Source: Naegleria gruberi
Lineage: Eukaryota
Length of the DNA stretch: 64,000 nucleotides
Reading direction: 5' to 3' (one strand)
Assembly (NCBI GenBank): GCA_000004985.1
Contig: GG738863.1
In this document: piece after piece, positions 7,661-49,611 of the stretch
Numbering within the stretch: the stretch's first letter is position 1
How the letters are laid out: the number at the start of each line of letters is the position of its first letter
Program-made: the position numbers and the translations under genes
Notes under the pieces: model-generated
What the model was told of the DNA's origin: nothing
The model's database searches: none
What the model saw: only the letters and a program-made list of their open reading frames with translations

Positions 7661-8331
7661 TTAAATTTTAGGCAATACTGTTTCTCCACTAGATCCTATA
7701 TTTGGCATTTTAATATTAGAGAAATTAGGAATATTAGCAGAAGAACCATCAACAAAATAATCAGAAAATTCCATATTTTGTGATGCTTGTTGTTGATTCA
7801 TCATCATGTTTTGTTGTAAAATATCTTCAGCTGTAATATATCTCTTCACTCGAGTAAATACATTGGCAGCATTTACAGCCATTCCTCCAATATTTTCCAA
7901 ATTCTTTTTAAATTAATTCCAACTCAAAGTTTTCATTTCCAACTTACCAATGGGAGAGCATTATCCGTTTTATGTCTCTGTTGATGTAATTTAACATAGT
8001 AAATATCTTCATCAATTTCATTTTCATCAATTTTTAATTCCTCTTCCTTCTTTTCAGGTTGAATATTGTTCTGAATTGATTTCCGATCATTAAAAAACGG
8101 TTTTCCACTCAATACATTCAACATTCCCCATACTAAAAACAATGGATTTTCTCTCATCAATTTTCTAAATGAATTAATTTTTCTAGTTGTGTATTGTGTG
8201 ACGTAGACAGACAATAGGCTTGTTAAAATTACTACGAATATATTCTTTGAATTTCCAATCAATAATTGATTCATGAGTAAATTACCCATAGCCTTGTCGG
8301 TACCTGGATTGTTCGATTGTTGCCTTTGCAT
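7661..8331 (-). CDS. Hypothetical membrane protein; 2 exons (7933-8331 and 7661-7900) joined by the intron GTAAGTTGGAAATG...AAAAAG.
   Basis: The minus-strand ORFs join in frame (...ALPLV|NLENIGGMAVNAANVF...). A hydrophobic stretch (IFVVILTSLLSVYVTQY) suggests one transmembrane segment. I do not recognise a family. Confidence 0.4.
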
Positions 8332-8879
8332 TTTTTTAATTCAAATATTTATTATTTAAATAATATTTAATTTATTACAATTTGAAAGTGATGAAAAGAA
8401 CCCCTAATAAAATTATTACAAACAAGGATTCAGAAGATAAGATCCTATCTATAATTGGATAGAGTTTTTGTTGATGAATAAAAAAGTCTTTTTCATTGTG
8501 AATCTCAATGGTTCATAGTAAGGATTAACGATTAATAAACATCTGAAGTGCTTGTTACAAGGTCGATCGACCAATGTTCATCAATTCGGTGCTGTTATCA
8601 AATGATTGTAGTGCAGAGACAATATTGGCCAAGTTGTTCACCTCTTTGAAATCCATCAGTAGATCTCGAGCAAAAAGGCGCCAACAGTGTTTCTGTTTAT
8701 TATGTCCCTGTACATTTTAGCTTCAAAAAAAAACATCAAACCATCACCACCCTTTTAGCTCTCCCTTAGTAATCAAATTATTTTCCATCTACAACCATCT
8801 TGTACAGAGTTTTTCTTTTGCGAAATCTTATCAAACATATCTCAAACCCTTGTTAATAGAGGAAATTTAAAATAACAAA

Positions 8880-24726: not shown

Positions 24727-25605
24727 ATGACTTCACTTTCAAATCCATCAAATAACATTTTGACAGCTGCCATGAATAATTCAACAACTACTTACCATCA
24801 ACAAGGACATGTTTCTGCAGAACAAGCCCTCCTTTCCATGATTAGTAATCCAAACTCCTCCCTTTCATTCTCCAATCCAAATTCCAATAATTCCTTCTTA
24901 CTTTCCAATAACTTTAATCCTCAACAACAACAACAAATCTTGAATTCCTCAGCCAATTCTCAACAGATTATGAATCCACAACAAGAATATATGAAACACA
25001 TTCTAATGAGAATTGATCAATCTCTTGATATGGTCTCTCAAAATCTGTTCAGAGATTTGGACAGTTTCTACATGATGCAACATCAAGAATTTAATCATAA
25101 AAAGAGAAAGTTTTCAGAATATGAAGAAGCTACTGATTACAATCATGGTATTGGTGCTGAGTTGATTGAAGAAGGTGCAGAGGGAGTTGGTTGTAACAAT
25201 TCGTCCAATTTCGTCCAAAAATCAGCAGTTCAACAAGAACTTGACAATGAATCCATTGAATTACAACAATTAACTGATTGGATTCAAAATAAGAAGAGAA
25301 AGAAGAATACCTCTCAAGGAAAAAAGGAAATTTTGAAAGAATTCTTAATGCTCAATAAGAATAATCCATATCCATCCGAAAGACAGAAAGAAATTTTCAT
25401 GAAGGAACTTGATTACGATAAGAAACAACTTAACAATTGGTTTATCAATGCTAGAAAGAGATATTTACGAAAGAAGGTTGCCTATACTCCACCAGATATT
25501 AGAAACAAGAATGAATTTGATTCAATTTTGGAAAATAAGGTTAGACAATCAATGAATCACAATGGAGAGGAAGATGATGAGCAGAATTTACCACTTCTCA
25601 ACTAG
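24727..25605 (+). CDS. TALE-class homeobox transcription factor.
   Basis: The homeodomain KKRKKNTSQGKKEILKEFLMLNKNNPYPSERQKEIFMKELDYDKKQLNNWFINARKRYLRKK has the three-residue loop insertion and the WFINAR(K/R)R helix-3 signature of TALE homeodomains. The upstream region is N/Q/S-rich. The first ATG (MTSLSNPS) is at about 24727; the track ORF starts earlier on an alternative codon. Confidence 0.75.
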   Translation: MTSLSNPSNNILTAAMNNSTTTYHQQGHVSAEQALLSMISNPNSSLSFSNPNSNNSFLLSNNFNPQQQQQILNSSANSQQIMNPQQEYMKHILMRIDQSLDMVSQNLFRDLDSFYMMQHQEFNHKKRKFSEYEEATDYNHGIGAELIEEGAEGVGCNNSSNFVQKSAVQQELDNESIELQQLTDWIQNKKRKKNTSQGKKEILKEFLMLNKNNPYPSERQKEIFMKELDYDKKQLNNWFINARKRYLRKKVAYTPPDIRNKNEFDSILENKVRQSMNHNGEEDDEQNLPLLN

Positions 25606-45114: not shown

Positions 45115-45764
45115 ATGTCGAACAGTTTCAATCTTTTGGAACACGCTTCAAACAGCGATCCACTCGAAATTGCTTCATCTGCCAAGAAGGAAGTTAAGCA
45201 AGAAAAGCCAAAAGTTGAAGAAAAGAAGCCAGTTCAACAACAAAGAAAGCCAAAGCCAACTTCTGCTCCATCCGAAGTTGTCGAAGAAGGTTTCCAAGGA
45301 ACCCGTTCTAAGACTAGAGGTGGTAGACAACAACACCAAGGATACCAACCACCAAAGAAGGGTAGAACTTTCGATCGTCATGTCTCTGGTACTGGTANNN
45401 NNNNNNNNNNNNNNNNNNNNNNNNNNNNNNNNNNNNNNNNNNNNNNNTTCCAAAAGGAAAAGAAGAAGGTTGAAAAGGCTGCTGAAAAGAGTCTGCTGCT
45501 TCTAAGCCAAAGACTGTTGCTGTTTCTGAATTCTTAGATACTGCTTCAATTGAAAAGATCAAGGAAAGAAGAGATAAGGAATTGTTGGAAGGTCCAAAGC
45601 AACCAAGAGGTCCAAGACAAGACAGACCAGAAAGAACTGATAGAAAGGGTGGTAAGCCACAAAACAAGGGTCAAAAGGGTGCCAAGCCAGCCTCAGGCCA
45701 AAAGAAGCCACGTCCAGTCATCAACAAGGAAAAGGACTTCCCTGCTCTCAGCCCACAAAACTAA
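45115..45764 (+). CDS. Stm1/SERBP1/HABP4-family mRNA- and ribosome-associated protein; the coding sequence is interrupted by an N gap, with the frame shifting across it.
   Basis: The product begins MSNSFNLLEHASNSDPLEIASSAKKEVKQEKPKVEEKKPVQQQRKPKPTSAPSEVVEEGFQGTRSKTRGGRQQHQGYQPPKKGRTFDRHVSGTG. The N-terminal NxFxLL motif and the FDRH-SGTG motif match Stm1 (TDRHSRTGK). After the gap it continues in another frame: ...LEGPKQPRGPRQDRPERTDRKGGKPQNKGQKG.... Confidence 0.55.
45398..45447. other. Assembly gap (50 N) inside the Stm1-like coding sequence.
   Basis: A run of n characters; the reading frame differs on the two sides. Confidence 0.99.
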
Positions 45765-45816: not shown

Positions 45817-46515
45817 TTATTCATAATTTATTTTAGCACTTTTCCATGTTTTTCCCCAATTTTCATCTGTTTGAATATGACCCTTTCTTACATACTTGGC
45901 AATATTTCGTTCAAAATCCTTGTTTGCAAATGTTTGAGTTGATTTGATAACAAATCCTTCTAGACCTTCTCCTCCTCCGACTTGACTAATCTTCTTATCT
46001 TTAATTCTTTCATCCATCCATTGTTTAATTTCATCAAGAGAAGTGAATGTACCTCTGTATAGAACTGGAACAATTGGAACCATACTCGATAAATCATTAT
46101 CATTAATAAAATTGATCATTTCATCCCATCCATACCATCTATTATCTTGTAAATCTAAAATTGCAAATAAATAAAAGTATGATTTCAAATTATTATATTC
46201 TATAGAGTGAATTCCGTACATATTCTCTCCAAACAATACTAAATGATCAGGTATCAGAAATGAAAATTGAGAATATAATTGTTTGATAGGTCCAAAACTT
46301 GCATGTGTTGCCTCCTTATTTGTTGTTCTAGCAAAGATCTTTCCTTGAAATAATTGACAATTGCCACCATCCATCTTTTCGGTAATAATCACTTCTTGAC
46401 CAACAAATTGTGTACAATGTTGATTGGAAAGTACAACATCATCATCTTGATGTTCGGGAGAGAATGGTAAATGTGGTGTTTTTGGATACTTTTGTGTTTG
46501 AAATTTAGATGCCAT
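45817..46515 (-). CDS. Minimal ATP-dependent polynucleotide (RNA) ligase-like protein of the covalent nucleotidyltransferase superfamily; intronless.
   Basis: The 232-aa single-exon ORF carries ligase motif I (TEKMDGGNC, KxDGxN with the lysine nucleophile). It also has motif III (LVLFGENMYG), motif IV (EGLEGFVIKS, EGxVxK) and motif V (AKYVRKGH). Confidence 0.6.
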   Translation of the reverse strand: MASKFQTQKYPKTPHLPFSPEHQDDDVVLSNQHCTQFVGQEVIITEKMDGGNCQLFQGKIFARTTNKEATHASFGPIKQLYSQFSFLIPDHLVLFGENMYGIHSIEYNNLKSYFYLFAILDLQDNRWYGWDEMINFINDNDLSSMVPIVPVLYRGTFTSLDEIKQWMDERIKDKKISQVGGGEGLEGFVIKSTQTFANKDFERNIAKYVRKGHIQTDENWGKTWKSAKINYE

Positions 46516-46540
46516 TATTATTAAAAGTGTTGATTGTTTT

Positions 46541-46740
46541 TTTTGATTTTCTTGTTCTCAATAGTAATTTAAAGATAAAGTATTCTGAGATTCAAATCTA
46601 TATTTAACTCTCAGTTTTGAATTTGAAACTTTTTTACAACAAATGTTTATTTAACAGATTCTGTTAAGTTCAAATGAGTTACATATTCCAATCCTCACTT
46701 TCAACAGTTTTCATCAAATAATTAAATATATTGAAAGTGG
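46541..46740 (+). repeat. Copy A of a duplicated non-coding segment (about 80% identical to 47345-47452), with an internal insertion of about 105 bp.
   Basis: TTCTTGTTCTCAATAGTAATTTAAAGATAAAGTA (46548-46582) and CCAATCCTCACTTTCAACAGTTTTCATCAAATAATTAAATATATTGAAAG (46689-46738) align with 47351-47450 in the same orientation. Confidence 0.6.
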
Positions 46741-47204
46741 GATCACATAATCCATTCCTCATTATACTTGCAGGCATCAATGGCAGGTATCCATAGCATT
46801 AATCATCAATGAAGAACCTCTAATATCAGTGAAATTGGAGGCCTTGTTTGACAGCTGGATATCATTTACATAATATGATGCTTTTAAGGAATAATCCATA
46901 AGATAAGATCCAGAAAATTCGTGAAATGATTTAACAAGTAGTAAATCAATACTATTTCATTGACTTTTGCTCTAGTACCACTATTATACCAATTCAATTT
47001 TTGATGGCTGTATGTTAGCCAATCTGTTTCTGATTGCTGTGCTAATAGTTTGAGTGTATTGAACAATATTTGTTGGACCTATCACTTGATACAGCTTATG
47101 TGGGTAATTGAAAGTTTAACTAAAATAAATAAATAATACAAAAGCTTCAATAATTACATAAATAAAAAGCTTCAAAACTGTTCGCGTTTTAAAGAAATAA
47201 AAAA

Positions 47205-47278
47205 TACGCCGTAAGGGAGTCGAACCCTTGACCTTCAGCGTGTAAAGCTGACGATCTAACCAACTGATCTAACGGCGC
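47205..47278 (-). tRNA. tRNA-Val(UAC): tRNA-Val, anticodon UAC; no intron.
   Basis: Minus-strand sequence GCGCCGT-TA-GATC-AGTTGGTTA-GATC-G-TCAGC-TTTACAC-GCTGA-AGGTC-AAGGG-TTCGACT-CCCTT-ACGGCGT-A. The acceptor stem is 7 bp (with G1-U72), and the D, anticodon and T stems all pair perfectly. It has a GTTCGA T-loop, U33 and A37, and anticodon TAC. A T-rich run follows the 3' end (minus-strand sense). Confidence 0.85.
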
Positions 47279-47344
47279 TTGCAACATTTCCAAAAAATTT
47301 CCTAACTAATCAAATCAACATTAAAATCCTAAATGTAAACTTGT

Positions 47345-47452
47345 CCTTTTTCTTGTTCTTAATAGCTATCAGTAAAGATAAAGTAAATTTTCATTTCTTC
47401 TCCTCACTTTCAATAGTTTCATCAAATAATAAATTTATATTTAAATAAATTC
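47345..47452 (+). repeat. Copy B of the duplicated segment, immediately upstream of the U1-C start codon.
   Basis: TTCTTGTTCTTAATAGCTATCAGTAAAGATAAAGTAAATTTT...CTCCTCACTTTCAATAGTTTCATCAAATAATAAATTTATATTTAAATAAA aligns with 46548-46738. Confidence 0.6.
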
Positions 47453-47475
47453 GCAAATGAACAAGAAGTAAAAAA

Positions 47476-48156
47476 ATGCCTAAATTCTATTGCGATTATT
47501 GTGATGTATTTTTAACAAATGATTCAATTTCTGTCCGAAAACTTCATTGCAAAGGTTGGAGACATAAAACCAATGTAAGAGCTTTTTTTGCTCAATTTGT
47601 TGGAGATCCTACAAGTGCTCTCATGGTTTCAACTCAACAAGTGCCTAAAGAAGACGCAAAGGAAGTTCCAAGTTTAATGATTGGAGTACAACCCGAACAA
47701 ATGATGATGGGTGTACCTTTACTAGTGAATGGAATGCTTGTACAAAATGGAGTTATTCTTCCAAATCCTTCAGCATCAGGAACAATGATGATCTTACAAA
47801 ATAATTTATCAAATACAAACAATAATCAAACAATACAAACATCATCAACAACAACAACAACATCATCTTCTGCTGCTAGTAATCCTACTCAACATATTTC
47901 TAATAATGTACTTCATGCAATAGGTCAAATGACAAAAACACCAGAAAATTCAATTCCTCCATTCCCTGATACCTCATTCAAGCCACCATTTGCAGATGAA
48001 AATTCACAACAACCAAATTGGTTTTTATTTCCTCCACCACCTCCTCCTCACTTGATTAATTTATGTCCAAATATTCCACTTACAGGAAGTTATCAGCAAA
48101 CAGCACCATCACCTCCATTCCCATACATGTTACAAAAACAAAAAGTTGTAAATTAA
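47476..48156 (+). CDS. SNRPC: U1 small nuclear ribonucleoprotein C (U1-C, matrin-type C2H2 zinc finger).
   Basis: The N-terminus [34 protein letters not shown] is nearly identical to the U1-C zinc finger ([34 protein letters not shown]). The C-terminal half is low-complexity M/P/Q-rich, as in U1-C orthologues. Confidence 0.85.
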   Translation: [226 protein letters not shown]

Positions 48157-49611
48157 TTGATCAATGTCACTAAGAGTTTGAATAATTGCAATTACCACAA
48201 AAAACAGATGGGATTTGCACTTAATAAAATAGCCATTTCTGTTCTCAATCTTGTTCTAAATATTTCATAATGTGAAATTCATAAATATTGTGTTTGCCTC
48301 AATGATTTTGAACTATTTGTTTGTTGGACCATCAAGTCAATCTCATCTTTTAATTATTGTTTAATGTCTTGTTCTTTTAATTTCATTACCGTGAAAGGAT
48401 GAATGGTGATATTAATCAAGATTGTAGATATTTTTTTAACTGAAGGAGATGAGGATTGGTTGACTTGTTGTGAAAATTAAGGTAATGGTCAAGCAAAACT
48501 GTAAACACCTTACAATGTGACTCACTACAGAAAGGCTCTAAAATGTTTCCAATAAGTGCATTTAGTCCAGTTATTCACCAACTCCTTTAGTGAATTGGAT
48601 TTATTCGAATCATCATATTTGACCACAAGACCGACGTGGACTTCCTCTATTGGAAACCTCACACAACCAATTCATACTTGAACAATAACATCCGTAGTTT
48701 AACACGAAGTGAACAGTAGTTTGATTTGTAAACTTGTCAATTGAGAATCTACTTTTTTAAAAAATCTGTAGTTGAATTTTGGCACTTTTTAATTTATTTC
48801 TTTTATTGGTTTGAAATCACATGAAAAAGAAAGACAGACCCACATTAATTTCAAAATAACAATTGTCACTATTATACCTTCATTTTGATGTTTCAGTCCG
48901 TTCCTTCTATTTTTTAACACGAATCTCTTAATTTACCAAAATTTTCTAATTTCAGTAAATTGTGCACAAATAATCACAAACATTTCTTGATTGGATTACA
49001 AAGCAACAAAAGCAACACGGCTCCCAAAACTCACTCTTATTGTATTGAACTATAAAGATGTTTCATCATTGTAACATATATTCTATTGGTTCGCCCAACC
49101 ATTTAATACTACTGCAGCATTTACTTGAGAGCTGTTGTAGTTGAACTGTAAAACTGTAACAATTAGCTTATCCACACACACATCGTGTGAACATCAACGT
49201 TTAGAGCCGTTAATGGTTCAGTGCAGTGGTTGAAGAAGAGGAGGTTTCACTGATGTGATGTAGTTCAGTGTGTGAAGGTAATAATAAGTATTTTTGGGTA
49301 AATCATGAGAGGCTTCAAGAAGAGCACTGCAATAGGTGTTAATAACATCAAATTGATGCGCATCGTTTAGGCGCCCAACGAATCCTGCAGTGCATTAAAC
49401 AGGTCGTTCAACGGAGCAATTTGTACCAACACCAAAATTTCTGGCTGGTTATTATTATCTTTGTTGTGTGGTTTTAAAAAGAAGCCGACGCAGTAATTTT
49501 TTATTTATTCATCCAAAAAAACACAACAACAACATTGCCACACAGCAACCAATAGCGAATTGATTGCCCGCCATTTTTCACTTCCAATATTCACTCGCAC
49601 TCTAGTCTGAA

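Follow-up and report, generated by a model that had tools for sequence, protein, structure and literature searches.

Among the tRNA-associated elements of dictyostelids, TRE5 inserts ~50 bp upstream and TRE3 ~100 bp downstream of tRNA genes (PMC5006619), and the defining features of TRE5, TRE3, DGLT-A and Skipper-2 with which the present locus was compared were taken from the same publication. The locus lies in a 64-kb stretch of Naegleria gruberi DNA (hereafter the window, meaning the whole stretch that was analyzed), in which two similar segments, copy A and copy B, flank a tRNA-Val(TAC) gene in direct orientation; copy A adjoins an RNA-ligase gene, copy B precedes the gene for U1-C, and a stretch of 460 bp lies between copy A and the tRNA, all of them within the window. 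The host belongs to the Heterolobosea (Discoba) and not to the Dictyostelia. The original prediction likened the two copies to footprints of tRNA-targeting retroelements such as the TRE and DGLT-A families, with a duplicated promoter or leader module as the alternative. On balance, the repeat is best explained by the local duplication, not in tandem, of ~100-190 bp of DNA from an intergenic promoter region, an event confined to the N. gruberi lineage and located at a rearrangement breakpoint. We regard the locus as a real but ordinary lineage-specific micro-duplication, and the retroelement reading is not supported.

The duplicated segments

The two copies were recovered independently by a repeat finder, MAFFT, BLAST and Smith-Waterman alignment, and they share three collinear blocks in direct orientation, with identities of 17/18 (block 1), 13/13 (block 2) and 31/33 with one 1-nt indel (block 3), which amount to 64 nt at ~95% identity (coordinates in Table 1). 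In a global alignment 90 of the 106 aligned bases are identical (85%), and ~94 bases are present in copy A alone. The predicted pair of collinear segments in the same orientation is thus real, and so is the tRNA-Val gene between them. Chance similarity between AT-rich intergenic sequences might be suspected at a local GC content of only 18-30%, where short AT-rich matches are common; it is, however, refuted by a Smith-Waterman score of 59 against 23.3 +/- 3.3 in dinucleotide shuffles (~11 standard deviations above the mean, and reached by 0 of 300 shuffles), by BLAST self-matches of 87% over 46 nt (E=5e-8) and 84% over 38 nt (E=1e-4), and by the collinearity of the blocks, so that we give it practically no credence. 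After proper alignment the identity stays above background.

Several details of the earlier description needed adjustment. The extra insertion ascribed to copy A is present, but its net size is ~94 nt (a spacer of 110 nt against 16 nt in copy B) and not 105; it reflects either an insertion in copy A or a deletion in copy B, and no signature of a terminal inverted repeat or a target-site duplication (TSD) was found in the copy A spacer. Copy B does end shortly before the U1-C start codon, but the homology fades at ~47445, 31 nt and not 25 nt before the ATG. Copy A does adjoin the RNA-ligase gene but does not merely lie alongside it: since its left edge is only 30 nt from the RNA-ligase ATG, it overlaps the promoter and leader of that gene. 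The left edge of copy B is 67 nt from the 5' end of the tRNA, and copy A is ~465 bp from the tRNA 3' end. The homology ends sharply on both outer sides and extends neither into the 460 bp, the tRNA and U1-C nor into the RNA ligase. Given these sharp ends and the unrelated interior, the geometry is that of a repeat, an unrelated 0.6-kb insert and a second repeat, and not that of a tandem duplication of a larger unit. A simple tandem duplication of the U1-C leader and gene, or of the RNA-ligase 5' end, was rejected, as only ~100 nt of the 801-bp period are shared and the 460 bp resemble neither gene. Copy A also ends in a perfect 9-bp inverted repeat, CACTTTCAA ... TTGAAAGTG (46696-46704 / 46731-46739), which encloses 26 nt of AT-rich sequence; copy B has the left arm alone.

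Each copy carries a TTTAAAT (TATA-like) box directed toward its own gene, and each box is missing at the equivalent site of the other copy, with TTGAAAG in copy A where copy B has its box. At -85..-30 of the 31 candidate gene starts examined in the window, the box was found six times, against 1.07 expected (~six-fold), and 5/6 of these occurrences fall at -58..-65. Most of the 31 candidate starts also have an A-run directly before the ATG. The box at -58..-65 and the A-run are likely core-promoter and start-context signatures of N. gruberi, and the copies and their boxes may function as promoters. The proposal of a duplicated promoter or leader module comes close to the explanation preferred here, with the reservations that the shared blocks are upstream sequence, that the TATA-like boxes are copy-specific, and that copy A faces the RNA ligase rather than some unidentified gene on the plus strand.

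Comparison with related species

Orthologous loci were fetched by means of the RNA-ligase and U1-C proteins. The order of the PDI, HABP4 and RNA-ligase genes, and of the genes for 108-aa and 443-aa proteins on the other side, is conserved in N. lovaniensis (L001) and in Naegleria sp. ERZ27315067 (L010), and partly so in Willaertia magna (L002), for which no PDI or 443-aa match was identified within the stretch fetched. In Willaertia and Naegleria sp. the RNA ligase directly adjoins the 108-aa gene orthologue, the two genes being divergent and separated by an empty 800-900 bp, while in N. lovaniensis a GT61 gene lies between them. The spacers compared were 46516-49611 of the window, 7126-10000 of L001, 9094-10000 of L002 and 3242-4038 of L010. 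No tRNA, U1-C or repeat was found between the RNA ligase and the 108-aa gene in N. lovaniensis, Naegleria sp. or Willaertia, and among the species compared copy A, the 460 bp, tRNA-Val, copy B, U1-C and a further 1.45 kb of DNA free of open reading frames (ORFs) are present in N. gruberi alone. From this synteny it follows that the arrangement of copy A, 460 bp, tRNA-Val, copy B and U1-C is specific to the N. gruberi lineage. Lineage-specific gene insertions have recurred in the spacer between the RNA ligase and the 108-aa gene, with the GT61 gene in N. lovaniensis and tRNA-Val with U1-C in N. gruberi.

In N. fowleri, N. lovaniensis and Naegleria sp., U1-C is located elsewhere, with no tRNA nearby and with upstream DNA unrelated to copy B. 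The chromosomal neighborhood of U1-C differs in each lineage examined. No intron interrupts the RNA-ligase gene in N. gruberi or Willaertia; the gene appears to have one of ~158 nt in N. lovaniensis and one of ~91 nt in Naegleria sp. at the same position, sizes that were derived from tblastx coordinate offsets and gene lengths (window 45817-46515, L001 10001-10857, L010 4039-4828).

Occurrences of the repeat elsewhere

A mismatch-tolerant search of the 64-kb window with each block identified no further copy beyond the two sites, none was found in five loci from four relatives, and block 3 had 0 matches in metagenome and viral collections. An independent N. gruberi-like assembly (ERR1078381; L008/L009) carries copy A together with the extra segment at 99% identity; the contigs of this assembly are genomic and uninformative on transcripts. 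In two independent assemblies of ERR1078381 the sequence ends at 47116-47119 and the contig with U1-C begins at 47453 (L007, L008, L009), so that the tRNA and copy B fall in a stretch spanned by no ERR1078381 contig, with breaks in the AT-rich DNA on each side. This gap is probably due to the very low GC content (18-22%) rather than to repeats.

A weak look-alike was found at 8352-8426 (-), 59-95 nt before the ATG of an ORF that starts at 8331(-). It has the same order as copy B, with a block-1-like CTTGTTTGTAATA, then TCATCACTTTCAA and then a TTAAAT-rich stretch, and the part that resembles block 3, together with an AT-rich stretch, lies 59 nt upstream of the ATG; the match (E=0.001) is largely AT-rich and may reflect either shared promoter architecture or chance. 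Within the N-terminal coding part of another gene (24727-24760; ATG ACT TCA CTT TCA AAT CCA TCA AAT AAC), TCACTTTCAA and CATCAAATAA are common with block 3 at a different spacing; the coding sequence is rich in Ser and Asn, and the resemblance is probably coincidental. The block-1-like sequences at 48235-48263, downstream of U1-C, did not reach significance.

The 460-bp stretch

The absence of a convincing ORF between copy A and the tRNA, noted from the outset, was borne out by frequent stop codons in all six frames. Pfam gave only a sub-threshold MutH match, HMMER searches with the longest ORF against 1.84 billion proteins returned tandem-repeat artefacts only, and Rfam yielded nothing but noise at either threshold. 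No excess of RNA folding was found on either strand (z-scores of +0.50 and -0.09 relative to shuffles), and no similar sequence was detected elsewhere in the window, in the relatives' loci (the syntenic GT61 gene among them) or in Naegleria ribosomal DNA (rDNA) units. A structured non-coding RNA was thus rejected on the Rfam and folding results, and an origin as a pseudogene (from the GT61 gene, from U1-C or from the RNA ligase) or from rDNA-plasmid DNA was rejected for lack of tblastx or blastn similarity. A small-RNA gene divergent from the tRNA in the trypanosomatid style was likewise dismissed, as a plus-strand transcript of RNA polymerase III (Pol III) starting ~95-105 nt away would meet TTTT within 20 nt. 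The stretch contains a 25-nt tandem pair (47124-47173), AATAAATAAATAATACAAAAGCTTC and AATAATTACATAAATAAAAAGCTTC, 80% identical, situated ~30 nt past the tRNA-Val 3' end and beyond the T-run terminator.

Origin of the duplication

The segment between the copies is unrelated to either side and is bordered directly by repeats of host DNA in the same orientation, as in an insertion with duplication of its target. It is plausible that U1-C first came to lie head-to-head with the RNA ligase across a compact shared upstream region, and that a fragment of ~0.6 kb, comprising the 460 bp and the tRNA-Val gene, was then inserted there with duplication of ~100-190 bp of the target, either through the fill-in of a long staggered break or through template switching during repair. 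Because the target was duplicated, each gene would have kept a full upstream copy. Afterwards, a 94-nt indel and small changes may have led the copies to diverge, each retaining the core element for its own gene, with the result that the box of copy A faces the RNA ligase and that of copy B faces U1-C.

Several points weigh against this scenario. A length of 100-190 bp would be unusual for a target duplication. The blocks are ~95% identical and the spacers unalignable, an unevenness that might stem from selection acting on the blocks, perhaps in their capacity as regulatory sites, and not from simple decay. The copy count of the repeat spans a window of only 64 kb. Furthermore, the relatives have no insert, tRNA, repeat or U1-C at the locus, but since their intergenic DNA is unalignable to copy A or copy B they offer no clean empty-site comparison. 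When the copies were aligned with the DNA upstream of the RNA ligase in N. lovaniensis, Naegleria sp. and Willaertia, these upstream regions proved too diverged to show an ancestral copy or to polarize the direction and mechanism of the duplication. The copy A spacer (46583-46692) gave a hint of similarity to the RNA-ligase upstream region of Naegleria sp. L010, at p ~0.02 in one scoring scheme, which was not robust and was non-significant in the others.

Alternative explanations

The similarity could instead reflect shared cis-regulatory modules, with transcription-factor sites in the same order that are kept by selection or gene conversion and blocks that serve as functional bidirectional upstream elements. 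The contrast between well-conserved blocks and unalignable spacers fits this explanation, as do the look-alike upstream of 8331(-), with its CTTGTTTGTAATA, TCATCACTTTCAA and TTAAAT stretch, and the enrichment of CTTGTTCTYAATA-like 13-mers in the window (20 vs 9.2 expected); however, 64 nt in three collinear blocks at 95% identity far exceed the usual sharing of motifs, the third locus is weak and mostly AT-rich, and the other occurrences of CACTTTCAA in the window sit within coding sequence. Moreover, such an account concerns maintenance, and the origin of the copies would still need common descent by duplication; we hold it to be unlikely though worth keeping in mind. The block conservation leaves room for a regulatory role in both copies, which is compatible with an origin by duplication. 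It is very improbable that copy A provides U1-C with an alternative promoter and a first exon farther upstream, in which case the 460 bp and the antisense tRNA-Val would form an intron in the 5'-untranslated region (5' UTR), with the pyrimidine tract and AATAG of copy B as its 3' splice site. Pyrimidine tracts with YAG do occur at 47345-47365 and 47395-47416, copy A retains a plus-strand TATA-like TAAATATAT (46722-46730), and GT donors are possible at 46787 (GTATCC) and 47103 (GTAATT), but these donors are poor, U1-C has a TTTAAAT box of its own at -36, and in three relatives the DNA upstream of U1-C is short and unrelated and gives no hint of an intron of this kind. No plausible splice donor or upstream exon was found in the interval from the tRNA to copy B. 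We give very little weight to a third idea, in which the minus strands of the copies encode paralogous C/D-box small nucleolar RNA (snoRNA)-like RNAs, block 3 being the C box and a guide, block 2 a second guide, and the CTGA of copy B the D box. It draws on weak minus-strand Rfam matches to SNORD61 (19.5 bits, 47365-47428) and snoMBII-202 (15.7 bits, 46690-46745) and on TTGATGA ... CTGA in copy B at 57 nt spacing; yet these scores fall 20-25 bits short of the gathering thresholds of 43 and 40 (E 4-7), copy A has no D box and holds its two supposed guides 110 nt apart, the terminal stem has at most 3 bp, and no duplex of at least 13 nt adjoins the D or D' box. C/D-box snoRNAs pair with rRNA through a guide of 10-12 nt or more that adjoins the D or D' box; here, complementarity to rRNA was no better than in shuffles (14 windows vs 7-21), as assessed with 13 Naegleria rDNA units. 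These come from 37 heterolobosean rDNA contigs, which were retrieved from metagenomes with the Naegleria internal transcribed spacer primer, and the 13 also match the Naegleria 28S-side primer. A C/D snoRNA on the minus strand was rejected on the grounds of guide complementarity and the missing D box of copy A.

The copies might also be terminal or solo repeats resembling long terminal repeats (LTRs), or other footprints of a mobile element associated with tRNA genes, with a degraded interior of 0.6 kb, a possibility that we consider very improbable. Direct repeats do bracket the tRNA gene, TG...CA ends can be read in both copies (46539/46748 and 47342/47455), the locus is a lineage-specific insertion site, and the 67 nt between copy B and the tRNA roughly agree with the ~50 bp of TRE5. 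However, copy A lies ~465 nt downstream of the tRNA, which is incompatible with TRE3, and the 13-33 bp upstream of the mature tRNA typical of DGLT-A/Ty3-type insertion were not observed, the nearest repeat edge being farther away and the tRNA lying between the repeats. The view of the 460 bp as the degraded interior of an element found no support, as neither the two ORFs of TRE5 and TRE3, including ORF2 with its reverse transcriptase (RT), nor remnants of them were found (six-frame stops, Pfam, HMMER), and similarity to RT, gag or integrase is absent. In LTR elements a primer-binding site (PBS) should follow the left LTR at ~2 bp and a polypurine tract (PPT) should directly precede the right one; copy A is followed by a sequence (TAATCCATTCC..., TAATCCATTCCTC) without complementarity to a tRNA 3' end, copy B is preceded by one (...AAATGTAAACT, AAATCCTAAATGTAAACT) that is no polypurine tract, and neither fits a DGLT-A/Ty3-type LTR or a terminal-repeat retrotransposon in miniature (TRIM). 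There is no poly(A) end, and the suggested search for target-site duplications identified no 4-6-bp repeat outside the copies, whose outer flanks (...TGTTTTTTT on one side and AATGAAC... on the other) share none. A functional-looking tRNA gene with its own terminator sits inside the supposed element, no other copy was identified in the window, in the relatives' loci or in the metagenome and viral scans, and the host is not a dictyostelid. For these reasons the footprint of a TRE- or DGLT-A-like retroelement was not upheld, and an LTR or TRIM element was rejected despite the readable TG...CA ends, since PBS, PPT and TSD are absent. It is highly doubtful that the ~0.9-kb unit of copy A, 460 bp, tRNA-Val and copy B is a copy or relic of an undescribed heterolobosean non-autonomous mobile cassette with terminal direct repeats of 100-200 bp that carries or targets a tRNA gene; were it so, tRNA-associated mobility would have arisen independently and convergently outside Dictyostelia and fungi.

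Features of the locus

Table 1. Coordinates of the features of the N. gruberi locus (positions in the window)
Feature	Position	Strand	Remarks
RNA ligase gene (PF09414)	45817..46515	-	232 aa, intronless in N. gruberi; ATG at 46515
Copy A	46545..46740	+	blocks 46547-46564, 46570-46582, 46693-46725
TTTAAAT (TATA-like) box	46567..46573	-	-58 from RNA-ligase ATG; unshared spacer between blocks 1 and 2 of copy A
Copy-A-only spacer	46583..46692	+	110 nt vs 16 nt in copy B
460-bp non-coding stretch, copy A to tRNA	46741..47204	.	no homologue found
tRNA-Val(TAC) gene	47205..47278	-	ARAGORN and Rfam, 69.9 bits
Copy B	47346..47445	+	blocks 47348-47365, 47373-47385, 47402-47433
TTTAAAT (TATA-like) box	47440..47446	+	-36 from U1-C ATG; tail of copy B
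Mini-ORF of four codons (ATG AAC AAG AAG TAA)	47456..47470	+	between copy B/TTTAAAT box and U1-C ATG, read from sequence
U1-C gene (zf-U1, PF06220)	47476..48156	+	226 aa, single exon; ATG at 47476

The identities of the RNA-ligase and U1-C genes were confirmed through homologues, and the RNA-ligase ORF matches a PF09414-family protein of Naegleria gruberi at 100% identity. None of the recorded gene products matches the U1-C ORF exactly, and the sole match of this ORF at 100% identity is a metagenome assembly and not an N. gruberi annotation; U1-C may for this reason be absent from the reference protein set. The mini-ORF would belong to the 5' UTR of U1-C only if transcription begins farther upstream. 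The tRNA-Val(TAC) gene is the only tRNA gene in the window according to ARAGORN and Rfam, and it has a six-T run (47199-47204) at its 3' side on its own strand. In the ~1.45 kb on the 3' side of U1-C (48157-49611) neither an ORF of at least 46 aa nor an Rfam match was found, an unusual length for so compact a genome, and the only likeness of this region to the Willaertia spacer is an A-rich 30-mer near 49505-49534. The HABP4/PAI-RBP1-like gene adjoining the RNA ligase is broken by a run of N (an assembly gap) at ~45380-45430.

Comparison with known systems

The dictyostelid elements TRE5, TRE3, DGLT-A and Skipper-2 (PMC5006619) resemble the N. gruberi locus in the presence of a repeat near a tRNA gene in a compact protist genome and in the distance of copy B (67 nt vs ~50 bp for TRE5). 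In contrast to them, the locus belongs to another supergroup and has no RT or ORF, PBS/PPT or A-tail, its repeats stand on both sides of the tRNA and not on one, a single pair of copies was found, and copy A is ~465 bp and not ~100 bp away. The yeast solo LTRs (Ty3 sigma, Ty1 delta) and TRIM elements are similar in having short direct repeats with possible TG...CA ends near or enclosing a Pol III gene; here, however, PBS, PPT and TSD are absent, the lengths of the copies differ two-fold, a complete tRNA gene with its terminator lies inside, and no family members were found. Duplicated C/D-box snoRNA genes share the C-box-like and D-box-like motifs on the minus strand of copy B and the block-wise conservation, but the scores at this locus are sub-threshold, no rRNA target was found and copy A has no D box.

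Beyond annotation the meaning of the locus is slight, and it would matter more only if the repeat proved to be a genome-wide tRNA-associated family; it nevertheless provides a small, clean example of a compact head-to-head promoter that appears to have survived an insertion. Its likeness is to insertions with target duplication and to micro-duplications by template switching, of the type described for microhomology-mediated break-induced replication (MMBIR) or fork stalling and template switching (FoSTeS), with the break presumably in a divergent promoter and with direct host copies flanking an unrelated, lineage-specific insert at a synteny breakpoint. Compared with the TSDs of classical transposons, the duplicated ~100-190 bp are far longer, and the mechanism is one that we infer; as would be expected of such an event, each of the two flanking genes here keeps an upstream region of its own.

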